Below, piece after piece: positions 14,614-40,822 of a DNA stretch of 64,000 bases. Both the position numbers and the translations under genes were made by a program. Below the pieces are notes generated by a model that had not been told where the DNA came from, did no database searches, and saw nothing but the letters and a program-made list of their open reading frames with translations. The stretch comes from Dolichospermum sp. OTE_75_concoct_329_sub (GTDB taxonomy: Bacteria > Cyanobacteriota > Cyanobacteriia > Cyanobacteriales > Nostocaceae): contig JANMEE010000036.1 in NCBI GenBank assembly GCA_031376645.1, positions 8,239 through 72,238 of the forward strand, written 5' to 3'. Each line of letters begins with the position of its first letter. Within the stretch, counting starts at the first letter, position 1.

Positions 14614-15900
14614 TTAAGCTTCCCCGGTCTGAAGACGCGGGGATTTCTGAAGAGTCCATAAAAGAACTTTCGTAGGCTGACTTAAACAACCTCTACCTAC
14701 TCCAATTAAGTCAAACTTAAATATCGCAGCTACTTTTCTGATTATGTTGACCGCACCGTTGCAATCTGCATTAATTTTTGTGCCGTCCTGAGAACAGTAC
14801 AAACCCCGGCTAATTCTTTTCCCTGATTCTTTCCACCCTTCGGGTTTTGCACCAAATGTAGGTAGAAAATCATTATCTAAGAACGACGTTTTTGAGGTAT
14901 AGGATTCTTCAGTTTCAACAAACTTGATACCGTATTGTTCACACAGTTGAGCAATGCGGTTTTTTAGTTTTGCAGTAGGGATTTGAACAAACTTTTGATT
15001 AGTTTTTGATCCAAGATTTATAGAGTCTTTTTGTCCAACATTCCAGCCAAAAACAACAGTACCAATTTTATGATCTATGCAATGGTTGATTACGATTCTA
15101 GCCGCCTTATTAGTCGCATCTCTCATCTGGCGATTACGCTTTTCTGTAATCGCTGCAAGCCTGTTTGACCAAAAACCCTGCGGTTTATTTTCCTTGATTT
15201 TAGCTACAGATTTGTTATACCACTGGTTGATGCTTTTTAAATGTAGTCCGTCAACTATAAAGGATGTACCAATATTAGAAACACAAGTTAACCAATTATT
15301 TAACCCGTGGTCAATTCCTAATACTTTTGATGCGTCCACCTCGGAGATTTTAATATCTTGTTGGTAAACAAATTCTGCATAAAAGCATCTGTTCCTTGGC
15401 AGGATACGGACTTCTCTTATTGATTTATAGTCCAGATTTGAGGGCATAGGGATATAAAAAGCGTCTATTCCAAACCACGCTTTCACCTTACTACCTAAAG
15501 GGAATCTCAATATTCCGTTCTTTAATTTTAAAGAACGCCCCGTAAAGGTGGCAATAGACATTACACTTTTACAGTAATTTGGTGGTTTAGGTTTTTGAGT
15601 TACCGTACCTTCTTTTATGCCTTTTAAAAGTCCAAAGTAAGACTTAAAAGATTCTGCAACAGTAGTTAAAATCTGTTGTGCTGTGTCCGAGTACAAAGCT
15701 TGATAATGGGCGTTTTTTTGGATAGTTCCCAATTGTTTATGCAGGTCGGCTTTACTTGATATCTTGCCAGTCTTAAAATATAACTGACGAGAATAGTAAA
15801 CACCGCAATTTGTCAGCTTTTTAGCTTCAGTACAAACATATTCCAATATGGCTTTTAAATCCTTATTCGGGCTAATTAATATCTGTTGGCAGCCGTACAC
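14614..15900 (-). CDS. tnpB: RNA-guided endonuclease TnpB
   Basis: RuvC-I VLGIDHG, RuvC-II ETEESYTSK, RuvC-III INADCNGAVNI: D-E-D triad intact. Cyanobacterial SFLD variant lacking CxxC. Start is GTG. Confidence 0.93.
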   Translation of the reverse strand: MYGCQQILISPNKDLKAILEYVCTEAKKLTNCGVYYSRQLYFKTGKISSKADLHKQLGTIQKNAHYQALYSDTAQQILTTVAESFKSYFGLLKGIKEGTVTQKPKPPNYCKSVMSIATFTGRSLKLKNGILRFPLGSKVKAWFGIDAFYIPMPSNLDYKSIREVRILPRNRCFYAEFVYQQDIKISEVDASKVLGIDHGLNNWLTCVSNIGTSFIVDGLHLKSINQWYNKSVAKIKENKPQGFWSNRLAAITEKRNRQMRDATNKAARIVINHCIDHKIGTVVFGWNVGQKDSINLGSKTNQKFVQIPTAKLKNRIAQLCEQYGIKFVETEESYTSKTSFLDNDFLPTFGAKPEGWKESGKRISRGLYCSQDGTKINADCNGAVNIIRKVAAIFKFDLIGVGRGCLSQPTKVLLWTLQKSPRLQTGEA

Positions 15901-15925
15901 AATTATTTTTACCTGTGTTGTTTTC

Positions 15926-15966
15926 TTGACTTTTCCACTATAACTGAGTTAGATTCTATTTGTCAA
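15926..15966. promoter_or_regulatory. Overlapping divergent sigma70-like promoters for tnpA and tnpB
   Basis: Plus strand TTGACT-N18-TAGATT (15926-15955); minus strand TTGACA-N18-TATAGT (15966-15937). Confidence 0.5.
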
Positions 15967-15984
15967 TAGCGACGAGAAAACAAC

Positions 15985-16386
15985 ATGAAAACCACTTTGG
16001 AGTTTAGAACAAGCAACCATTCTAAAGGCAACGCTGTAGTTCATCTAGTCTGGATTCCCAAACGAAGAAGGAAGGTTTTATCTGGAGAGATAGCCAAGCG
16101 TCTTCGACAAATAATCAATGATTTAGCTCAAGAGAAGGATTGGGACGTTTTGGCTTTAGAAGTCGCGCCAGATCATGTCCATTTGTTTGTAGAGCATCAA
16201 CCGGATATAGCCATTAACCAAGTTATTAAGGCGTTTAAAGGTCGGTCATCTTATCTATTGAGAAAAGAGTTCCCGGAGTTATTAAAACTTCCTAGCCTAT
16301 GGACTAACAGTTATTTTTATTCGACGGCAGGTCAGGTTTCCGCAGATACAATTAGACGATACATAGAAGACCCGCATCATGGTTGA
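15985..16386 (+). CDS. tnpA: IS200/IS605 Y1 (HUH) transposase TnpA
   Basis: HLVWIPKRRR, PDHVHLF (HUH), KGRSS, LWTNSYFYST, TIRRYIEDP. Confidence 0.95.
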   Translation: MKTTLEFRTSNHSKGNAVVHLVWIPKRRRKVLSGEIAKRLRQIINDLAQEKDWDVLALEVAPDHVHLFVEHQPDIAINQVIKAFKGRSSYLLRKEFPELLKLPSLWTNSYFYSTAGQVSADTIRRYIEDPHHG

Positions 16387-29149: not shown

Positions 29150-29467
29150 ATGACCCAAATAACATCAAAAAAAGTAGTAAGAAGAGGGAGAATTTTTCCT
29201 GAACTAACTATATCACCAGAAGAATTAGCTAGAAGAGAAGCAGAAGATGAAATATTTTATCAGCGTTGTCTGGCAATCTTTGAGCGTGTACGTCCTGAAT
29301 ATATCGAAAGTCACTATGGTTGGTATATTGCTGTAGAACCAAATAGTAGAGAATATTTAATTGATAAGGATAGGATGCAAGCTCATAAAAGGATGTTAGA
29401 AAAATATTCTCAAGCTAGACACTTTGTTTTTTGTTTGAATGAAACGGGTACAACTGGCACGATATGA
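29150..29467 (+). CDS. Small protein (DUF5678-like), partner of the downstream aspartic protease, copy 1
   Basis: YGWYIAVEPNS.EY motif; ATGA overlap with the protease; near-identical paralog at 30754. Confidence 0.7.
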   Translation: MTQITSKKVVRRGRIFPELTISPEELARREAEDEIFYQRCLAIFERVRPEYIESHYGWYIAVEPNSREYLIDKDRMQAHKRMLEKYSQARHFVFCLNETGTTGTI

Positions 29468-29661
29468 TAGATGTAGATGGTTATTTTGGAGATAATGGGG
29501 AAATATTTTTTGAGATTGAACTAGTCACTAATGATGAGTTAAATCTTCCTGTAGATGCTCTATTTGATACGGGTTTTGCAGGTTTTATGGCTATTAATAC
29601 ACAAGATTTAGATGAATTAGAATGGGTGTATAGTGGTGAGGAAACATTATTCTTTACCTAG
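29464..29661 (+). pseudogene. Truncated clan AA (retropepsin-like) aspartic protease, copy 1
   Basis: ALFDTGF catalytic motif; ends after 65 aa, about half the length of its paralog. Confidence 0.75.
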
Positions 29662-30092: not shown

Positions 30093-30674
30093 TTACTTAC
30101 TTAAATTTGTAGGAAAAGTAACATCTTCATAAACATCAGTGAGAGAACAAGAAAAATTCACACTGGTTAATTCTAATTGTTGATTTCCTCTATAACTATA
30201 AAGAACCCATCTTCCTTCAGAATTGCGCCGAAAACAATCAATTCTTTGACGATTTTGACTAACTAAAACATATTCTTGTAAAGTGTCTAATTCTTGATAA
30301 TCACTAAATTTATCACCTCTATCTAAGGCTTCTGTAGAAGGTGATAAAACTTCAATGATTAAACTCGGATATCGTTTAAAATATTCAAATTGTGTATCTC
30401 TTGAATCGCAAGTTACCATAATATCAGGATAATAGAAAATATCTAGAGATTCAATTCTCGCTTTCATATCAGCAACGTAAATACGGCATCCTGTACCACG
30501 AATATGATTTCTTAAAAGGGCAACTAAATTAGCAGTAATTGTTACATGAGCATCACTAGCACCAGCCATTGCGTAAATTTGCCCTTGGATATATTCATGT
30601 TTAATAGGGCTAGATTTTTCAGCTTCTAAATATTCTTCTGGGGAAAGATAGGAGTGAGATTTATTAAGAGTCAT
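30093..30674 (-). CDS. Uma2-family endonuclease-like protein
   Basis: KHEYIQG, YYPDIMV, IIEVLSPST...DRGDKF..Y...TLQEYVLV. Confidence 0.9.
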   Translation of the reverse strand: MTLNKSHSYLSPEEYLEAEKSSPIKHEYIQGQIYAMAGASDAHVTITANLVALLRNHIRGTGCRIYVADMKARIESLDIFYYPDIMVTCDSRDTQFEYFKRYPSLIIEVLSPSTEALDRGDKFSDYQELDTLQEYVLVSQNRQRIDCFRRNSEGRWVLYSYRGNQQLELTSVNFSCSLTDVYEDVTFPTNLSK

Positions 30675-30753
30675 ATCAGAAAATTATTATATTGATTATT
30701 TAGATGATATCATATATTGTGTTAGAATGTTATTTATAATTGAAGTTAAAAAT

Positions 30754-31071
30754 ATGACTCACATAACATCAAAAAAAGTAGTAAGAAGAGGAAGAATTTT
30801 TCCTGAATTGACTATATCACCAGAAGAATTAGCTAGACGAGAAGCGGAAGATGAAATATTTTATCAGCATTGTCGAGCAATTTTTGAGCGTGTTCGTCAT
30901 CAATATATTGAAAGTCATTATGGTTGGTATATTGCCATAGAACCAAATAGTGGGGAATACTTTCTTGATCAAGATAATATTCAAGCTCATAAAAAAGTCC
31001 TTGAGAAATACCCAAAGGCTAAGAATTATGTGTTTTGCTTAAACGAAACAGGAACGACTGGGAGAATATGA
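30754..31071 (+). CDS. Small protein (DUF5678-like), copy 2
   Basis: 105-aa paralog of 29150-29467 (MTHITSKKVVRRGRIFPEL...); ATG at 30754 lies inside the tracked ORF 30727. Confidence 0.7.
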   Translation: MTHITSKKVVRRGRIFPELTISPEELARREAEDEIFYQHCRAIFERVRHQYIESHYGWYIAIEPNSGEYFLDQDNIQAHKKVLEKYPKAKNYVFCLNETGTTGRI

Positions 31072-31431
31072 TTGAGGGAAATTTTGGTAGGGAGGGGCAG
31101 CTATTTTTTGAGCTTGATTTTGATTACTGCTGATGGATTAAATCTACCTGTGGATGCGATGTTAGATACAGGATTTACCAAGTTTATGGCAATTAATACT
31201 CAAGATTTGGATGGACTTGATTGGGTTTTTCTTGGTAATGAACATAAGCAAACAGCACAAGGTGAATCAAGGTTTAATATCTATTTAGGTAAGGTAATAT
31301 TGGATGGTAAGGAATATGAAATTCCTGTTGATATGGGGGATAATATTACAGAAGTTTTATTAGGTTCTGAGTGGTTGAAGTTTTTGCGTTTGGTGGTGGA
31401 TTTTCCAAAAAGTATTTTGACTTTGGGATAA
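31068..31431 (+). pseudogene. Clan AA aspartic protease, copy 2, +1 frameshift
   Basis: ATG 31068 gives MIEGNFGREGQLFFELD; one extra T in the run at 31118-31121; the frame resumes LITADGLNLPVDAMLDTGF...EVLLGSEWL. Confidence 0.8.
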
Positions 31432-31507: not shown

Positions 31508-31747
31508 ATGAATGCTTACAAGACTTATATCACGATTGAAGACCCGAAGCAGGTAGTTTTATCTGATTTACCTTTTCAAGTTGGACAGCGTGTGGAGATT
31601 ATTGTTTTAGCTGAAGATAACCCGCAAGTTACGATGAGTAATAAATTGCGGAATTTATTTGATAAAACTCAGGCTATTCCTGGTGTGGAAGAGGTTACAG
31701 AGGAGGATATAGCCGCAGAAATTGAAGCTTATCGGCGTGGGAAATGA
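31508..31747 (+). CDS. Putative antitoxin of a PIN-family TA module
   Basis: 79 aa, C-terminal EEDIAAEIEAYRR, ATGA overlap with the PIN gene. Confidence 0.7.
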   Translation: MNAYKTYITIEDPKQVVLSDLPFQVGQRVEIIVLAEDNPQVTMSNKLRNLFDKTQAIPGVEEVTEEDIAAEIEAYRRGK

Positions 31748-31968
31748 AAGTTATTATTGATACTAATGTTTTAGTTTCTGCTGTTCTCAAGGGGAGAGAA
31801 CCAAGGGATGTTATTCAATTTGTTGTGGATAGTCCTAATTGTGATTGGGTTGTTTCTGAGGAAATTTTAGCAGAGTATCAGGATGTGTTAAGTCGGAAGA
31901 AGTTTAAGTTAACTGATGAAGTCAGAAAAGAATGGTTATTAGAGGATAGGTTTTTTGTGTCATGGTAG
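31744..31968 (+). pseudogene. 3'-truncated PIN-domain toxin
   Basis: MKVIIDTNVLVSA...SEEILAEY; stops at 74 aa versus 138 aa for the intact paralog-type gene at 38718. Confidence 0.8.
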
Positions 31969-32017
31969 TTTATTAAGTATTAATAGATGAAAATCCTGTA
32001 AATCTTGATTCAGAAAT

Positions 32018-32350
32018 CTAAACCGATGCAAAACCTGTAAACTGTCTGACATAAGGTGATCTAAAACCTAAAACAATATCCGTTTTCGGTACACCTAACT
32101 CTACTAATTGATGAGGAATTCCTTCTTCGGTAAAATCCCTTTCAATCCAGATTTTACCATCTTTAATACTAATATGAATGGGACAACCATAAATTCTATT
32201 TTCGTCTTTCCATCCTGTATACAACAGTAAATAAATATCCCGTTCAGTATCAAAAACAATTTCTGTATTTTCTAAATCTTCCTCTGCTTGGTCTTTTGCA
32301 TATTTAGAGATAATATCTTTTACTATCTCTTGATAATTTAAGGTTTCCAT
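32018..32350 (-). CDS. xisI: XisI family protein
   Basis: IVFDTERD.YLL...GW...RIYG..IH..IKDGKIWIE.D.TEEGI...L...GVPKTDIVLGF. Confidence 0.9.
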   Translation of the reverse strand: METLNYQEIVKDIISKYAKDQAEEDLENTEIVFDTERDIYLLLYTGWKDENRIYGCPIHISIKDGKIWIERDFTEEGIPHQLVELGVPKTDIVLGFRSPYVRQFTGFASV

Positions 32351-32757
32351 AACACTATTTCTTCCTTATTAATGTCAAAAACTAATAATTTAATTTCATA
32401 AGTTTGTAAAACAGTTTGAATGAAACTATCAGTAAAAAACTCTTGATATATGTCTTGAGATATAGCTAAATATAATATTCTTTCAGAGTCTTGTTGTCCT
32501 AATGCTATCCTATAATTTAAAAATTGACCAATAGCTGTATGAAATTAAGAAATTGCTGAAAGTCCTAGAAAACTTTTTACTTCCACCGCTATCTTTTGAT
32601 GATCTTTCTCAGCGCCAATTAACTTTTCTGCTCCTAAATCTATCCTAATTTTAACTAATGCGGTTAGGCGCAAATATAAAGGATCATCAGTAATTTGCCA
32701 ATTCTCCTTTTCTAAGGCTATTTTAACTGTATTGTGAAAAATATCTTTCGCTGACAT
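32338..32757 (-). pseudogene. xisH: XisH family protein with nonsense mutation
   Basis: MSAKDIFH...KIAVEVKSFLGLSAIS*FHTAIGQFLNY...; TAA at 32547-32545 where the intact paralog has E; frame continues to a stop overlapping xisI. Confidence 0.88.
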
Positions 32758-32930
32758 AAAAATTTAAAGTGATATTTTATCTTAGATAATACCTTATTTT
32801 TTAAGTAATGGCTCTGTATTATATTTGTAAGTAGGGTTAAGCTGCATCGCAACCCAACGCAATCAAATTATAAAAATGTTGGGTTATGCCTACGGTACGC
32901 TACGCGAACGTTTCTCAACCCAACCTACAA

Positions 32931-33260
32931 CTAACCCACTGCAAAACCAGTAAATTCCCTCACAAAAGGAGATTTAAAACCTAAAACTATATCGGTTTTT
33001 GGTACTCCTAATTCTACCAGTTCACTAGCTACACCTTCTTCAGTTAAATCTCGCTGAATCCAGATTTTTCCATCTCTAATATCTACATGAATAACTGTAC
33101 CATAAGCCCTTTCGTTATTCTGCCATCCTACATGAACTACTAAATAACTATTTCTTTCACAATCAAAAATTAACTCCTTTTCTGTTCCTTCTGATCTATG
33201 ATTTTCGGTATGTCTTGCTAACACGGTTTTTACTAATTCAGGATAATTCATTCCTTCCAT
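32931..33260 (-). CDS. xisI: XisI family protein
   Basis: Same motifs; start overlaps the xisH stop. Confidence 0.9.
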   Translation of the reverse strand: MEGMNYPELVKTVLARHTENHRSEGTEKELIFDCERNSYLVVHVGWQNNERAYGTVIHVDIRDGKIWIQRDLTEEGVASELVELGVPKTDIVLGFKSPFVREFTGFAVG

Positions 33261-33664
33261 AAAACAATCTCCTGTTTAATAATTTCAAAAATCAATAATT
33301 TTAATTTATGTTCAGCAATTATTTCTTGAATAAAGGGAATTAGAAAAAACTCTTTGTATATGTCATTACCAATTGCTAAATATAAGATACGGTTGGGTTC
33401 TTTTTTTCTTAAAACAGTACGATAATTAAGTGTTTGTCCTAAAGCTGTGTGAAATTCAGTAACTTCAGATTGTCCTAAAAAAGATTTTACCTCAACTGCT
33501 ATTTTTTGACCTTCTTTTTCTGCTCCTAAAAGTCTTTCTGCTCCTAAGTCAATTCTAAAGTCAAGACCATCTACTGTAAATGATAAAGGATCATTAGTAA
33601 TTAACCAATTATCTTTTTCTAAAGCTAACCTAACTGCATTGTGAAAAAAGTCTTTTGCTGACAT
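33248..33664 (-). CDS. xisH: XisH family protein (PD-(D/E)XK-like), intact
   Basis: MSAKDFFH, IDLGAE, KIAVEVKSF, FHTALGQ.LNY, RILYLAI. Confidence 0.92.
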   Translation of the reverse strand: MSAKDFFHNAVRLALEKDNWLITNDPLSFTVDGLDFRIDLGAERLLGAEKEGQKIAVEVKSFLGQSEVTEFHTALGQTLNYRTVLRKKEPNRILYLAIGNDIYKEFFLIPFIQEIIAEHKLKLLIFEIIKQEIVLWKE

Positions 33665-33793
33665 ACAAACTTACAATAACACCCTCCACCCCATTATATA
33701 GGAATCCGGTTTGATTCTTGAAAAGATACGTAGGGTGTGTTAGCGATCGCGTAACGCACCAAACTCTTGATAATGGTACGTTACGTATTTTAT
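33582..33793. repeat. About 212-bp direct repeat, copy A (copy B at 36871-37082)
   Basis: Near-identical at offset 3289; contains the xisH 5' end, its upstream region and the left half of a family-C repeat. Confidence 0.9.
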
Positions 33794-34094
33794 GCTGACG
33801 TACTCTACAATGATACAATACATGGTGGTGTATTAATTTGGGAATTTACAAAAAGCCCTGGCGATTAGAAATTGCGGCTATACAAACGAAGTCCACCTTC
33901 GTGGACTAAAAATAAGATTTTTGAACCCGCGAAGGCGGGTTTTGTCTGTGTAGATGTGAATTATATTCGCCTAGTTATAAAGACTTTTTGTTAAATTTTA
34001 TTAATAACTGATAATTTAAGGATCTATGTTATAATGTGTTTTCTATAAATTAATTCATGTCTTTAAATAAAACATAATCTTGATTAAATAAATA

Positions 34095-35597
34095 ATGAAA
34101 TCTATTGTTAAACAATTAAGTCTATTTGAATTAGAATTGACAAAAACAAATCCTGAAAAAATAGTATTACCAAAAGGCTATAAAGGATTAGCTGCTTTTC
34201 ATAAATATTGGGGTAAAAAACCAATTGAATGTTTAGCATTTTTAATTGAAAACTTAACAGAAAAAGGTGATATTGTTTTAGATCCATTTTTAGGATCAGG
34301 TTTAGTTGCTCGTGAAGCAGTAATTAGAGAAAGACGATTTATAGGTATTGACATTAATCCTGTAGCTGTAGAATTATCGAATTTATTAGTAAATTTACCA
34401 AATCCAGATATTTTAAAAAAAGCCCTTGATGAATTAGAAATAAGTGTTAAATCAGAAATATATAAAACTTACTTACTAGAAGATGGAAAATTTGCAACTC
34501 ACTATTTATGGCATGGAAATGAACTAAATTCAGTTTGGCATTTATCGCCAAGAAGAAATGAAAGTGATAAAAGGATACCAACTAATTATGACTATCAAGT
34601 ATTTAAACAATTTGAGGGATACGAACCTAAAATACCTCGACCAATTAAGTTATTTCAAAATAGCCGTATAAATACAAATGATACTTTAACACTAAAAGAT
34701 TTATTTACTGGTCGTGCGTTACATAATATAGATTTGTTGCTTAATGCAATTCACAAACAACCAGATTCTATTAAATCTGCATTATTGCTATCATTAACTG
34801 CTGCTTCTGGTCAAATGTCTAAGATGGTTTTTGCAATTACAGGAAGAGGTAAAACAAAATCTGAACCAACAAATAAAATAGAAGTTGGTAGTTGGGTGAT
34901 AGGATATTGGCGACCAACGTTACATTTTGAAATTAATGTGTGGAATTGTTTTATTAAACGTGCAAATAGTTTACTAAAATCTATTCAAGAAGATGAATTT
35001 AAAAAAGGTTATTGTGTATCTAAAAGATTAACAGATGTTATTGACAATAAAGCAGATGTAGCAATTTTCCAAGGTGATAATCGAAAAGTTCTTAATAATT
35101 GCCCTGATGAAACTATTTCTTTGATATTAACTGATCCACCACATAGTGATAGGATTCCATACTTAGAATTGAGTGAAATGTGGAATTGTTTAATAGATAA
35201 AGAGCCGGATTTTTCTCAAGAAATTGTAGTTTCTAATGCTCGTAGTCGAGGGAAGAATAAAAACAATTATGTGAATGAAATGATGGAATTTATGCAAACT
35301 GCTACTCGTATCCTGAAACCTAGTGGAATATTAGCTCTATTTTTTAATGCGAGAGATGCTGATAGTTGGAAGTTCTTAAAAGAGGTAATACCATCTGATA
35401 ATCAATTACAATTTCGTGGATTATTTCCTATGAATTATTCAGCTAATTCAGTAATTCAAGATAGCAGAAAGGGAGGTTTAAAAAATGATTTCGTTTTAAT
35501 CTATCAAAAACCTGGAAATGAAGATAATATAAAATTGATATTATTAGAAAAATTACCTAATTGGTCTAAAGAAATACCTAATATTCACTCAAAATAA
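34095..35597 (+). CDS. Amino (N6-A/N4-C) DNA methyltransferase, alpha-type motif order
   Basis: HKYWGKKP; motif I VLDPFLGSG near the N-terminus; motif IV LILTDPPH near residue 345. Confidence 0.85.
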   Translation: MKSIVKQLSLFELELTKTNPEKIVLPKGYKGLAAFHKYWGKKPIECLAFLIENLTEKGDIVLDPFLGSGLVAREAVIRERRFIGIDINPVAVELSNLLVNLPNPDILKKALDELEISVKSEIYKTYLLEDGKFATHYLWHGNELNSVWHLSPRRNESDKRIPTNYDYQVFKQFEGYEPKIPRPIKLFQNSRINTNDTLTLKDLFTGRALHNIDLLLNAIHKQPDSIKSALLLSLTAASGQMSKMVFAITGRGKTKSEPTNKIEVGSWVIGYWRPTLHFEINVWNCFIKRANSLLKSIQEDEFKKGYCVSKRLTDVIDNKADVAIFQGDNRKVLNNCPDETISLILTDPPHSDRIPYLELSEMWNCLIDKEPDFSQEIVVSNARSRGKNKNNYVNEMMEFMQTATRILKPSGILALFFNARDADSWKFLKEVIPSDNQLQFRGLFPMNYSANSVIQDSRKGGLKNDFVLIYQKPGNEDNIKLILLEKLPNWSKEIPNIHSK

Positions 35598-35617
35598 TCT
35601 TAAATCTGCAAAATAAA

Positions 35618-36712
35618 ATGAGTTACACCTTTTCTCAACTTTCTCGGCTCTATGATGAAAATAAATTTTTTGAATTAACATCATCTCCTGAAGGATTATA
35701 TTTTTTAAAATTACGTTCTTTGGCTCGAAAAGATTATTATTTGCATTTATTTCAAAAAGCACAAATATCTTCAGATAATTTAGGAGTAAAGCAGTACCTT
35801 GAAACACTTTTTAAATCTAATATTTCTTTAGAAACTATTCATGATTCTATTAATCAAATATATGAAATACAAAGAGAAGAACGTCGCATACATGAGCAAT
35901 ATTTACTAGCAGAATTATATAAACTAAGAGTTTTTGACTGGGGTGGTATCCATCAAAATGATATTAATAAGTATCTAGTTGATAACTACATCAAAAAGAT
36001 TACTAATTATGATAATTTAATAGAAAAAGTAGAAAATGAAATTTTACATAGTTTAAAAGGTTTTGTTTTGTGTTCTTGGTATAATAATTGGACATCAATT
36101 ATTATTGAGGATATTTTTAAAGATCATCAGCGTGTTTTACCAACTGTGGGGCTAATTAAACAAGTTGATTTTTTTATTAATGATATACCTTTTGATCTCA
36201 AGGTAACTTATTTTCCAAAAGGTTTTATGGAAAATGAGAGAAGGAAAAGAAAACTAATAATTAAGGAATTATCAGAGTTAAAGAAGACAGCCAAAATATT
36301 TAATCTTCCTTTTGATCAAAATCGTCCTGATGATGAACTATTGATTGATTTGATTACAGCTTTTACTGAAAGTTCCCAGCAGAATGTAAAAGATTTTTAT
36401 GATAATTTTGTGAAAATTAGAAGAGATATTATCAACGACATATTAAAACAACCTCGTGAACTTTTGCGCTGGTTGTATGAAAATCAAGGTTCTCAAAGAT
36501 TTGATGCAAGTAATAGGTTATTTTTAGTTCTTGTGGATACTAATTCTTTAGAAGATAGTTGGAAGCTAAAAAGAGATTATAGTTTGTTAAAAAATAAAAT
36601 TGATGAATATCTAAATACACGCTCTTTTAATAAGGATAAACTGTTATTAAGTTGGAATTTTAATAACAATGAATATCACAGTTATGCTGATGTTTTGTTT
36701 ATTATGAAGTAA
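35618..36712 (+). CDS. Putative Type II restriction endonuclease (PD-(D/E)XK)
   Basis: Directly downstream of the MTase; VDFFINDIPFDLKVT fits a D-x(n)-D-x-K nuclease motif; very AT-rich. Specificity unknown. Confidence 0.6.
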   Translation: MSYTFSQLSRLYDENKFFELTSSPEGLYFLKLRSLARKDYYLHLFQKAQISSDNLGVKQYLETLFKSNISLETIHDSINQIYEIQREERRIHEQYLLAELYKLRVFDWGGIHQNDINKYLVDNYIKKITNYDNLIEKVENEILHSLKGFVLCSWYNNWTSIIIEDIFKDHQRVLPTVGLIKQVDFFINDIPFDLKVTYFPKGFMENERRKRKLIIKELSELKKTAKIFNLPFDQNRPDDELLIDLITAFTESSQQNVKDFYDNFVKIRRDIINDILKQPRELLRWLYENQGSQRFDASNRLFLVLVDTNSLEDSWKLKRDYSLLKNKIDEYLNTRSFNKDKLLLSWNFNNNEYHSYADVLFIMK

Positions 36713-36819
36713 CCACTTCCTCTAATATACCTCTAAGATACAAGGTTGGGTTAAGCTGCAACTCAACGCAATAAAATTATCAAAATGTTGGGTTTCGTTC
36801 CTCAACCCAACCTACATAA

Positions 36820-36953
36820 CATAACTACCTTATAATTCAAAAACTGACCAATAGCTCAGTAAGTTCAAAAGATAAAGGATCATGAGTAATTAACCAATTA
36901 TCTTTTTCTAAAGCTAACCTAACTGCATTATGAAAAAAGTCTTTTGCTGACAT
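36820..36953 (-). pseudogene. xisH: XisH remnant with internal deletion
   Basis: MSAKDFFHNAVRLALEKDNWLITHDPLSFELTE joined to AIGQFLNYKVV-like sequence, then repeat DNA. Confidence 0.75.
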
Positions 36954-37082
36954 ACAAACTTACAATAACACCCTCCATCCCATTATATAGGAATCCGGTT
37001 TGATTCTTGAAAAGATACGTAGGGTGTGTTAGCGATCGCGTAACGCACCAAAATCTTGACAATGGTACGTTACTTATTTTAT
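36871..37082. repeat. About 212-bp direct repeat, copy B
   Basis: See 33582-33793. Confidence 0.9.
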
Positions 37083-37106
37083 ACTAACTTAACCTACAAT
37101 ACATAG

Positions 37107-38327
37107 TGTTTTTCTATTGAGATTGTTAGCAAACTGCTACAAATTCCCGAATCTGTAATTGAAGAAATAGAAGATGGTCAAATTGAAAAATACTGGCAAG
37201 AGATTTACGGAATGCTTTGCATTTATGGAAAGCCAGTTCATGAAATATTTGAAGACTTTTTTGAAAATAATCAAAATTATGAGATACATGATGTACCCAA
37301 AACTAAATATGCTAATTATGTCATAGACTGCATTAAGCTTATTAAGCAGTTACATGGTAGACCTATTCATTTGTCAAGTCTGCCTTTAGCAAGAGGTAAA
37401 CAAAACGGTAAGTCAATCAATTTTTCAGATGAAAATTCTGGACAGAAGCAAAGGTCTGTTAAAAAAGCTGTACCGACTGTCTTAGAAACTAGAGCGCACA
37501 ATTTAATTCATAAAAATAATCTTTTTAAACTACCTATTAATGTCTATCAACTAGCAACTAATCTAGGCATAAAGGTATTTTTTGAAAGTTTACCTAATGA
37601 TTTATATGACTTAAGGGGATTCTGTTATAAAGAGGATAATTTTAGTATTATAGGTATAAATCGGAAACATCATACTGTACTTCAAAGATTTACTATAGCT
37701 CATGAACTACATCATCTAATATATGACTTAAATGATAATAGATTTTTGTGTGGTACACATAATGAAAATAAAATCATAGAATTAAATGCAGAAAATTTTG
37801 CGGCTGAACTCTTAATGCCAAAACCCCTAGTACAAAAGCTAGTTTCTCATCCACCGAATATTCATTATTTAACTGTTAATCTAGTAGCAAAGCATTTTGG
37901 AGTTAGTTACGAAGCAGCAGCAATTAGACTTGAGAAGTTTAATTTAATTCCTAGCGCATCTCAAGTTTGCAAACAATCATATAGACGTGAAGATAAACAA
38001 AAAACGGAATTTTTACTTAAGAATAAACTTAAATATCTAATTGCAGTATTTGGTCTAGAAACTGGTATTGAAGAAATACAAATTGATAGAAAAATTAGTA
38101 ACCATTCAGTTTGTGGTGCTGTTATAAATGACCATACTCACACAGTTTGTTGGCATTGTGGTTTGGAAATTCAAGAACCTAAACATAATGAAATTTATTT
38201 AAAGAATCCATATCGACAAGATGCGGTAAATATATCTTCTAATAAGAAAATTTCTTCTTTCGAGCAGAAAAAAGGTGAAAAAACCGATAATGAACATGAA
38301 CAATTATCACTCAATTTAAGAATTTAA
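37107..38327 (+). CDS. ImmA/IrrE-family metallopeptidase with 5'-truncated XRE-type HTH and C-terminal Zn-ribbon-like motif
   Basis: RFTIAHELHH (HExxH), ELNAENFAAELLMP, VAKHFGVSYEAAAIRL. Frame is open upstream of ATG 37212 to a TAG at 37104 and encodes SIEIVSKLLQIPESVIEEIEDG; C-terminal H..CG...CWHCG. Confidence 0.85.
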   Translation, partial: CFSIEIVSKLLQIPESVIEEIEDGQIEKYWQEIYGMLCIYGKPVHEIFEDFFENNQNYEIHDVPKTKYANYVIDCIKLIKQLHGRPIHLSSLPLARGKQNGKSINFSDENSGQKQRSVKKAVPTVLETRAHNLIHKNNLFKLPINVYQLATNLGIKVFFESLPNDLYDLRGFCYKEDNFSIIGINRKHHTVLQRFTIAHELHHLIYDLNDNRFLCGTHNENKIIELNAENFAAELLMPKPLVQKLVSHPPNIHYLTVNLVAKHFGVSYEAAAIRLEKFNLIPSASQVCKQSYRREDKQKTEFLLKNKLKYLIAVFGLETGIEEIQIDRKISNHSVCGAVINDHTHTVCWHCGLEIQEPKHNEIYLKNPYRQDAVNISSNKKISSFEQKKGEKTDNEHEQLSLNLRI

Positions 38328-38360
38328 CTAAACTTGATAATTACTATTGTGATTTGTAAT

Positions 38361-38690
38361 CTAAACCGATGCAAAATCAGTAAACTGTCTCATATAAAGT
38401 GGCTTAAAACCTAAAACAATATCCGTTTTTGGTACTCCCAATTCTAGCAACTCACTAGCTACCCCTTCCTCTGTAAAATATCTCTGAATCCAAATTTTTC
38501 CATCTCTAATATCTACATGAATAATTGTCCCATAAGCCCTTTCATTATTTTCCCATCCTACATGAACTACTAAATAACTATTTCTTTCACAATCAAAAAT
38601 TAACTCCTTTTCTGTGACTTTGGAAGCATGATTTTCTGTATGTCTTCCTAATACAGTTTTTACCAATTCAGGATAATTCATTCCTTCCAT
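38361..38690 (-). CDS. xisI: Orphan XisI family protein
   Basis: Close paralog of 32931-33260; no xisH upstream. Confidence 0.9.
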   Translation of the reverse strand: MEGMNYPELVKTVLGRHTENHASKVTEKELIFDCERNSYLVVHVGWENNERAYGTIIHVDIRDGKIWIQRYFTEEGVASELLELGVPKTDIVLGFKPLYMRQFTDFASV

Positions 38691-38717
38691 AAAATAATTA
38701 AATAATATAAGTATAAT

Positions 38718-39134
38718 TTAATCAAGGTTGAGAAAGTCTCTCGGAGTAATGATCTGATTTTGGTATTCGACTAGAGTTTTAAGTGATAAAAGGTCTTGAT
38801 CTCCTGTGATCAAAAATTCTGCGTTGGCATCTTTTGCTAGTTCTAAAAATTTGTTATCATCTGGATCTCTACAGATATCTATTTGAGTCTTAATTTCTAT
38901 AAATTGGCTGTATTTTTTGACAACTTTTAAAAAATCTTGTCGTTCTTCATCTGAGATATATTTATTGAATTTAGGTTTATAAATTCGTGTTTTTAATTCT
39001 TGATAAGTTTCCTCACTTTGAGCTATTTTAAATTGTTTATAGGCTTTATCTAGGGCTTTACTGGCTGTTCCATCTGGACTGAGTGCAGCACTAAGTAAAA
39101 CATTGGTATCAATGACAATTAGTTTATGATTCAT
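38718..39134 (-). CDS. PIN-domain toxin (putative TA system, intact)
   Basis: VIDTNVLLSA, SEETYQEL, CRDPDDNKFLELA, ITGDQDLL. Confidence 0.9.
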   Translation of the reverse strand: MNHKLIVIDTNVLLSAALSPDGTASKALDKAYKQFKIAQSEETYQELKTRIYKPKFNKYISDEERQDFLKVVKKYSQFIEIKTQIDICRDPDDNKFLELAKDANAEFLITGDQDLLSLKTLVEYQNQIITPRDFLNLD

Positions 39135-39351
39135 CAGCTAATAATTCTTCTAAAATTTCTTCTGTAAGTCCTTTTGCTTGAGCGTTTTTACCAATTCTAT
39201 CAAAAACAGTAAGTAAATCCTCTTCTTGATTTTTGGGTGAGTTTATCTTTATTTGTTGGATAATTTCTTCTTGTTCTTGTGCTGGAAGTTGTAACACAAT
39301 ATTAAGAATTTGCTCAAAGCTTAGAGGAAGTGGATATGTTTTTTGTGTCAT
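39124..39351 (-). CDS. Putative antitoxin of the PIN toxin
   Basis: Likely start MTQKTYPL at 39351 (the tracked extension to 39501 is repeat DNA); C-terminal KGLTEEILEELLADES; overlaps the toxin start. Confidence 0.7.
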   Translation of the reverse strand: MTQKTYPLPLSFEQILNIVLQLPAQEQEEIIQQIKINSPKNQEEDLLTVFDRIGKNAQAKGLTEEILEELLADES

Positions 39352-39535
39352 AGTAATTTTAGCGATCTCGTTTGCGTAGCGTGTCGTAGGCATAGAGTAG
39401 ACGCAAAGGAACAAAGAAAAAATGCAAATACCTTGCATCCTATTATATCCTCTCTCCGTGCCTCTGCGCCTCTGCGTGAGAAAAAAAAGGGATAAGCCCA
39501 AAAGCCTATCCCCAAAAAATCAACTAAAAGATCAA

Positions 39536-40822
<1,287 letters not shown>

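Follow-up and report, generated by a model that had tools for sequence, protein, structure and literature searches.

The window analysed here, a stretch of 64,000 nucleotides from Dolichospermum sp. OTE_75_concoct_329_sub (assembly GCA_031376645.1, contig JANMEE010000036.1, positions 8,239 to 72,238), carries an array of xisH and xisI genes (together xisHI). Three intact xisI genes and three xisH genes, i.e., one intact, one with a nonsense mutation and one remnant, lie on the minus strand with Pfam matches of E = 1e-27 to 1e-53 (Table 1), in agreement with a preliminary description of the sequence. As that description also had it, the copies lie among genes of toxin-antitoxin (TA) and restriction-modification (RM) type, with VapBC, PIN, Uma2, type II methyltransferase and ImmA/IrrE neighbours. 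We conclude with high confidence that the region represents an array of autonomous xisHI cassettes in decay, set in a variable TA/RM hot spot, and not an excision element. XisH and XisI belong to known families, and the part of interest is a functional hypothesis: that XisH is a nuclease held in check by XisI.

The product of the intact xisH_B matches PF08814 above the gathering score with 181 bits over positions 1–134 of the 134 in the hidden Markov model (HMM), and the three XisI proteins score 128–137 bits on PF08869 over their full length. The end of xisH_B and the start of xisI_B share 13 nt. In the xisH_A pseudogene the single stop codon separates HMM fragments corresponding to positions 1–69 and 71–137; the N-terminal 70 amino acids match PF08814 with E = 1.6e-27 (96.8 bits), the C-terminal part scores 101 bits with a custom XisH HMM, and the catalytic D/E/K codons are retained in frame. 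Its partner XisI_A is 95–97% identical at the amino acid level to XisI of two comparison loci (L011 and L045). The xisH_C stretch is 95% identical to 33578–33811, which comprises the start of xisH_B and its upstream region, and after it come a short internal fragment and a hairpin repeat (36743–36820) resembling a miniature inverted-repeat transposable element (MITE). The orphan xisI_C is placed 27 nt downstream of the PIN/VapC gene, and homology to xisH stops 8 nt 5' of its ATG. It carries the substitutions D71Y and P98L at near-invariant positions of the family, P98 being retained in its orthologues, and these changes may represent early decay following loss of its xisH. The nearest protein relatives of the array are found in Aphanizomenonaceae (Cuspidothrix, Dolichospermum, Anabaena sp. 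WA102, and Sphaerospermopsis).

Table 1. Features of the xisHI region, positions in the window, and gene orders around xisHI on four plasmids.
Feature	Position	Strand	Remarks
IS200/IS605 element	14614-16386		TnpB/OrfB of 428 aa (Cas12f-like TNB domain), divergent from Y1 TnpA of 133 aa
Uma2 family PD-(D/E)XK protein	30093-30674	-	PADLOC candidate PDC-S03
Truncated PIN pair (decayed second VapB/PIN)	31508-31968	+	PIN shortened to 74 aa
xisI_A	32018-32350	-	Intact, 110 aa, A-type clade; PF08869 E = 3e-40
xisH_A pseudogene	~32344-32757	-	Full-length frame, single TAA at 32545-32547 (codon 71)
xisI_B	32931-33260	-	Intact, 109 aa; PF08869 E = 3e-40
xisH_B	33248-33664	-	Sole intact xisH in the window, 138 aa; PF08814 E = 1.4e-53
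xisH_B upstream region	33665-33811	-	Inverted repeat CGTAACGCACCA-N12-TGGTACGTTACG at 33750-33785; duplicated at 36956-37100
Strain-variable 5.5-kb block	33971-39500		RM genes, xisH_C remnant, ImmA, xisI_C, VapBC
Type II DNA methyltransferase	34095-35597	+	PF01555, PADLOC MTase_II
364-aa open reading frame (ORF)	35618-36712	+	Directly 3' of the type II methyltransferase; putative restriction enzyme
xisH_C remnant	~36852-37100	-	Codons 1-34 (36852-36955, HMM positions 1-34) and 145 nt of 5' sequence to 37100
ImmA/IrrE M78 metallopeptidase (CapP-like)	37212-38327	+	PF06114 E = 7.5e-21; PADLOC capP E = 4e-26
xisI_C	38361-38690	-	Intact orphan; PF08869 E = 2.5e-37
VapC (PIN_3)	38718-39134	-	PF13470 E = 5e-20; between ahcY and xisI_C
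VapB-like antitoxin	39124 to ~39351	-	Partner of VapC 38718-39134
ahcY (S-adenosylhomocysteine hydrolase)	39536-40810	-	Conserved anchor upstream of the array
Euhalothece pEu2 (L163)	Uma2 at L163:5781-6359		hsdM-xisH-xisI-Uma2-hsdS-hsdR
Leptolyngbya NIES-3755 plasmid1 (L175)			hsdM-xisHI-(two ORFs)-PIN-hsdS-xisHI
Picosynechococcus PCC 7002 pAQ6 (L168)			DUF1156-higB-higA-xisH-xisI-copG-PIN-(vapBC)-helicase
Tolypothrix PCC 7601 plasmid (L162)	Uma2 at L162:5825-6427		helicase-DUF1156-xisH-xisI-Uma2-Swt1/HEPN

The absence of an xisF-like recombinase and of an fdxN or nif gene from the window, noted in the preliminary description, was borne out by a Pfam scan, a tblastn search and a ferredoxin motif scan, all of which were negative. 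No recombinase besides the IS200/IS605 tnpA/tnpB was found in the 64 kb when ORFs were scanned with Pfam and the remaining large ORFs were inspected by reading their translations, and none of the Pfam-scanned ORFs has a Resolvase or Recombinase domain. A tblastn search of the window with the XisF-like serine recombinase of an Aliinostoc locus (L075) returned nothing (E > 3), the 4Fe-4S ferredoxin motif is absent from all frames, and the 64 kb contains no nif or fdxN gene. The site occupied by the array, between ahcY and an amidase gene, is conserved in Nostocales.

The comparison set comprised 80 genome loci retrieved with the XisH profile and 80 metagenome loci retrieved with the XisI profile, and the same separation from excision elements is seen in the genome loci. 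In each of the 80 genome loci xisI directly follows xisH on the same strand, mostly overlapping it or at most about 15 nt away, and the annotated plasmid copies that were inspected have the same arrangement. A XisF-like large serine recombinase, with Resolvase, Recombinase and Zn-ribbon domains, is encoded in one of the 80, i.e., L075, directly upstream of xisH; the other 79 contain no match to it within 8 kb. The pairs most closely related to that of L075 (XisH 73–78% identical) are stand-alone too. Pairs are found in the non-heterocystous Microcystis, Crocosphaera, Microcoleus, Okeania, and Limnothrix, outside cyanobacteria in Thiothrix, KSB1, and Herpetosiphon (on a plasmid), and on 40 plasmids, one of them that of Herpetosiphon; a search of a phage collection yielded no phage with xisHI. 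The stand-alone nature of xisHI is thus strongly supported, and it is already published: xisHI without xisF has been described in Lyngbya, Beggiatoa, and Thiomargarita (PMC2674450, PMC4853749, PMC10756260), and none of the three xisHI operons of Calothrix NIES-4101 lies inside a nif insertion element (PMC11249958). At least since 2009 the general function of XisH and XisI has been described as unknown (PMC2674450), and in one of these four papers the function of xisHI in non-heterocystous strains is called 'still to be disclosed'.

The neighbours of the pairs at these loci are heterogeneous and mostly housekeeping genes (ahcY, MscS, ATP synthase, phycobiliproteins, MnmE). Uma2, PIN, and ParE are the most recurrent small neighbour families, with Uma2 the most frequent in the genome loci. 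A conserved third partner gene was considered and rejected as the neighbour clusters differ across the genome loci. Likewise, a different upstream toxin (e.g., PIN) for orphan xisI was not supported, since no partner recurs and the upstream ORFs vary by locus. A VapB-like sequence, as at 39124–39351, recurs upstream of the orphan xisI in L083 and L090.

TA, RM or defence genes lie within two genes of xisHI in 10 of 17 plasmid contexts inspected, so that the co-location with such genes that had been noted for the window holds on plasmids as well. The cassette is embedded twice in type I RM operons and twice in DUF1156/helicase operons, beside HigBA and VapBC (Table 1), and plasmid xisHI take the slots of bona fide TA cassettes in defence operons. 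This association of xisHI with defence is one of genomic context only. A xisH-xisI-Uma2 trio is present on two of the plasmids (L162 and L163), and one Uma2 gene is also found in the island of the window.

The chromosomal site of the array has a history of its own. In 16 of the 80 genome loci one to four xisHI pairs begin right downstream of ahcY, and these arrays span Nostoc, Nodularia, Cylindrospermum, Anabaena, Dolichospermum, Cuspidothrix, and Desmonostoc. At the DNA level the ahcY-linked pairs reach about the same identity as ahcY (roughly 80–93%), and the order of the subtypes (A-type and B-type) varies. Contigs from an independent DNA run (X1) match the window sequence piecewise with 0–1 differences per contig. 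In a related strain a contig (run X11) fuses position 33971 to 39500, i.e., the entire block between them is missing and ahcY abuts the xisH_B promoter, and in another related strain (run X2) a contig fuses 36988 to 39482. The GC content of the block is 0.294 vs. 0.379 in its flanks. Both related strains have a C at position 32547 (plus strand), which gives the coding-strand codon GAA (Glu) in place of TAA in xisH_A, and the nonsense mutation is therefore recent and strain-specific. From the strain differences and the conserved ahcY site it follows that the array resides in a conserved yet variable hot spot that gathers TA, RM and defence cassettes. Run X2 also contains a fusion of 39320 to 31939. 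MITE-like hairpin repeats (GGGTTG...CAACCC) at 32849–32885 and 36743–36820 mark rearrangement borders, and their contig depth in DNA runs is 74–547x vs. about 10–35x around them.

The 147-nt segment upstream of xisH_B recurs elsewhere, in inverted orientation, in L003, and it is probably a MITE-like dispersed repeat. The inverted repeat within it was considered as a TA operator and rejected for this reason; with the segment dispersed and inverted in L003, it gives no evidence for autoregulation. A promoter scan upstream of xisH_B did not rise above background level.

The PD-(D/E)XK-like fold attributed to XisH in the preliminary description holds in the predicted structure. The residues D39, E58, and K60 (D..ExK) are invariant in all 83 intact XisH proteins, XisH_B matches PDB entries 2inb/2okf with E = 5e-48, and its AlphaFold2 model superimposes on them with template modelling (TM) scores of 0.87–0.94, followed by nickase, restriction-enzyme and R2 endonuclease folds. 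XisI_B matches PDB entry 2nlv (E = 3.6e-28) and its model reaches a TM score of 0.75 to XisI structures. Both genes are under purifying selection, with a median ratio of nonsynonymous to synonymous substitution rates among intact pairs of 0.13 for xisH and 0.15 for xisI. Distances among XisH proteins closely follow those among XisI proteins (Mantel r = 0.89, reached by 0 of 999 permutations), with XisI diverging about 1.13x faster. Metatranscriptome contigs of related strains cross the xisH/xisI junction. Small adjacent co-directional genes, the 13-nt overlap, the pairing at every genome locus and the RNA contig over the junction together make up a TA-type layout.

The two genes do not decay alike. 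In the XisH-selected genome set together with the window both genes are intact in 79 pairs, and in 11 pairs a xisH with a stop codon or frameshift, each lesion at a different position, stands beside an intact xisI. The converse, a broken xisI beside an intact xisH, is represented by one independent case, which is duplicated (L006). With 11 of 12 lesions in xisH, set against target sizes of 414 and 330 nt, the bias is significant (binomial p = 0.009). The same material contains six intact orphan xisI and at most one orphan xisH. The XisH-selected set has an ascertainment bias, for which reason the metagenome loci had been fetched with the XisI profile, and near-duplicates were removed before the symmetric census was counted. 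An intact XisH was accompanied by an intact XisI in 61 of 64 cases, and an intact XisI by an intact XisH in 35 of 63 (Fisher p = 8e-8); of the 28 intact XisI without an intact XisH, 9 stood beside a disrupted xisH, 8 beside a remnant and 11 had no xisH. The published numbers for giant bacteria, in which xisI exceed xisH (7 vs. 4, and 32 vs. 22; PMC10756260), agree in direction with the census. The preferential decay of xisH is a TA-like evolutionary signature, one that a non-antagonistic dependency would produce as well. In orphan XisI the excess of changes at conserved sites is weak and not significant (p = 0.08), and relaxed selection on them was rejected on this ground.

It is conceivable, with a chance that falls just short of even, that XisH is a potentially harmful DNase and XisI its restraining partner, in a manner resembling TA or nuclease-immunity pairs, and that the role in fdxN excision was co-opted. 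The two genes would be co-transcribed and translationally coupled via the 13-nt overlap, XisH would act as a minimal metal-dependent PD-(D/E)XK endonuclease with D39, E58, and K60 as catalytic residues, and XisI would be an obligate protein partner that binds XisH and holds the nuclease in check or gated. As an unpartnered nuclease may be harmful, xisH would be lost first and xisI kept, and what would be left are orphan xisI, xisH remnants and nonsense alleles of the kind present in the window. Orphan or surplus XisI may then cross-protect against paralogous XisH, and the dependence of XisF-mediated fdxN excision on XisH and XisI, as in Anabaena PCC 7120, may be a lineage-specific co-option of one cassette. 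It is tempting to speculate further that XisH/XisI, as a PD-(D/E)XK DNase with a partner of orphan fold, form a large unrecognised TA- or defence-associated family in cyanobacteria, giant sulfur bacteria and plasmids, with fdxN excision as a secondary co-option by a serine recombinase; this wider proposal is a tentative one, to be taken as somewhat doubtful. No paper proposing XisHI as a TA or defence module was found in the searchable literature, which covers subscription journals poorly.

Several observations weigh against a harmful XisH restrained by XisI. XisH and XisI are reported to cooperate rather than antagonise each other in excision in Anabaena PCC 7120, where xisH and xisI are jointly required according to the passages of PMC11249958 and PMC4874684 that cite Ramaswamy et al. 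(1997). PDB entries 2INB and 2OKF hold XisH alone, so that these homologues were presumably overproduced without XisI, which argues against a strong unspecific toxicity. Dolichospermum circinale AWQC310F (L006; 1995–2742 and 8715–9462) has two xisH with intact active sites whose cognate xisI are frameshifted, a middle segment of about 88 nt being replaced; other intact xisI are present within the same locus. This is the one clear case in which the rule of no xisH without xisI is broken. Many chromosomal pairs occupy conserved syntenic positions with housekeeping genes around them, and purifying selection acts on these pairs. PADLOC v2.0 gave no match for XisH or any XisI, nor did NCBIfam, and the XisI model has no structural neighbour in PDB outside the XisI family (next hit E = 0.1) and no recognisable helix-turn-helix (HTH) or ribbon-helix-helix (RHH) fold. 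The good conservation of orphan xisI also counts against such an antagonism unless XisI cross-protects; XisI would accordingly be valuable without a xisH in cis, be it through cross-neutralisation of paralogous XisH or because it has a separate function.

Much of this evidence would also fit an obligate two-subunit nuclease or DNA-processing complex, in which XisI activates or targets XisH, acting in defence or DNA processing and without being an addiction module. XisH would be useless without XisI, and XisI would retain some XisH-independent role. The joint requirement for excision in the passages just mentioned and the listing of XisI as a recombination directionality factor (PMC5311408) speak for it, as do the strong purifying selection on both genes with their co-divergence, the conservation of orphan xisI and the embedding of xisHI in RM and defence operons; that XisH homologues were crystallised alone is consistent with inactivity in the absence of the partner. 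The census cannot separate the two readings as both 'XisH harmful without XisI' and 'XisH useless without XisI' predict the ratios of 61/64 and 35/63 equally well. On the other hand, no DNA-binding or other known fold is recognised in the XisI model, xisHI fills the same slots as bona fide TA cassettes, and the 11 independent, recent xisH lesions suggest that the nuclease is costly, beyond mere dispensability. Such a complex is the main rival reading, and we regard it as rather unlikely. It is also quite improbable that the copies act in trans as accessory or directionality factors, serving XisF-like serine recombinases and interrupted nif, fdxN or hup genes that lie elsewhere in the genome, beyond the window. 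This role was defined experimentally in Anabaena PCC 7120, the host is a heterocystous Aphanizomenonaceae relative, and L075 has the canonical xisF-xisH-xisI order, but such a recombinase is missing within 8 kb in 79 of 80 loci and is likewise absent from the window. Furthermore, pairs occur in non-heterocystous cyanobacteria, in other bacteria and on plasmids, the Calothrix NIES-4101 operons are all outside nif insertion elements (PMC11249958), the window itself has only one live xisH copy out of three, and arrays of 2–4 divergent pairs, with 22–32 copies per genome in giant bacteria (PMC10756260), exceed any plausible number of elements. Finally, xisHI could be a selfish homing-type cassette, XisH cutting a site such as the 3' flank of ahcY for insertion and XisI protecting occupied sites. 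The recurrence of arrays at the ahcY-proximal site in many Nostocales with a variable order of A-type and B-type pairs, the differences in array content between closely related strains and the resemblance of the XisH fold to nickases and the R2 retrotransposon endonuclease would be accounted for. The identity of ahcY-linked pairs tracks that of ahcY, however, as under vertical inheritance, no target-site duplications or terminal repeats are recognised around single pairs, and for most of the 80 loci the contexts are unrelated and no flank is shared, which makes a homing cassette highly unlikely.

The window copies share with the fdxN excision system of Anabaena/Nostoc sp. PCC 7120 the families PF08814 and PF08869 and the tight overlapping xisH-then-xisI operon, and XisH_B is 56% identical to XisH of the xisF-linked L075, whereas the window lacks the XisF-like large serine recombinase, an interrupted fdxN/nif gene and element borders, and its copies belong to other clades, reside in a TA/RM island and are partly pseudogenised. 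Like toxin-first type II TA systems of the HigBA type, xisHI has two small genes that overlap and run in one direction, the putative toxin gene coming first, is multi-copy on plasmids and chromosomes, occupies the same slots as HigBA and VapBC in defence operons, and preferentially loses the putative toxin gene with persistence of orphan xisI; unlike them, XisH has a predicted PD-(D/E)XK DNase fold, not RelE or PIN, and XisI is predicted to have an orphan fold with no recognisable DNA-binding domain. Nuclease-immunity pairs (colicin DNase/Im; polymorphic-toxin Tox-REase/Imm) likewise combine a potentially genotoxic protein, here XisH, with a small co-evolving partner, but XisH is a free-standing protein of 138 aa without a secretion or delivery domain. 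In RM systems, too, it is the nuclease that goes first, the protective gene being left behind as an orphan, but XisI has no methyltransferase. Uma2 (DUF820, PF05685; PADLOC PDC-S03) is, like XisH, a small PD-(D/E)XK family greatly expanded in cyanobacteria, is present in the same island and lies directly 3' of xisHI on two plasmids; it differs in being a single-gene family without a dedicated partner and shows no sequence match to XisH. A possible role as toxins associated with extracellular contractile injection systems has been suggested for XisH and XisI domains by machine learning only (PMC11297309).

XisH and XisI have solved structures and the name 'fdxN element excision controlling factor', yet most copies have nothing to excise. 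The comparative evidence points to a self-contained module of a nuclease and its guardian with TA-like evolution and a defence-island context. If this is true, a widespread annotation would be corrected, the large copy numbers in giant bacteria would be explained, and fdxN excision may be a case in which a selfish or defence cassette was the source of a recombination directionality factor. Should the module turn out not to be antagonistic, it would still be a new kind of two-subunit PD-(D/E)XK nuclease.

Part of what had been said of xisI_C did not stand. In the alignment its product does resemble copy B at the N-terminus and copy A at the C-terminus, as first described, but the recombination proposed to explain this was rejected. 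Across genera, the A-type and the B-type clade alike have VRQFTGFASV as their consensus ending, and the xisI_C orthologues of Nodularia (L002) and Anabaena FACHB-1237 (L023), with 94% protein and 95–96.5% DNA identity over the whole gene, already end in KPPYMRQFTDFASV. The shared ending of XisI_C and XisI_A is therefore an ancestral character and XisI_C is no chimera, while the REFTGFAVG ending of XisI_B is a derived state, common to L033 and L001.

Among the remaining genes of the island, the region of the methyltransferase and the 364-aa ORF (34095–36712) has a GC content of about 0.28–0.30. The product of the 364-aa ORF has no family match in Pfam, PADLOC or NCBIfam and is presumably the cognate restriction enzyme, of an undescribed family. 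The ImmA/IrrE peptidase has a long C-terminal extension with cysteine pairs and no adjoining HTH repressor partner. A 31-nt repeat (31941–31971 and 39329–39359) connects the two VapB-like regions (31508–31968 on the plus strand and 39124–39501 on the minus strand). A duplicated two-gene module on the plus strand (29150–29661 and 30727–31431) encodes a protein of 105–114 aa and a clan AA 'DTGF' aspartic protease, the latter matching TIGR03698 below the cut-off; identity between the two copies is 84%, and in the first of them the second gene is truncated. This protease module also adjoins xisHI arrays in L006, L011, and L045.

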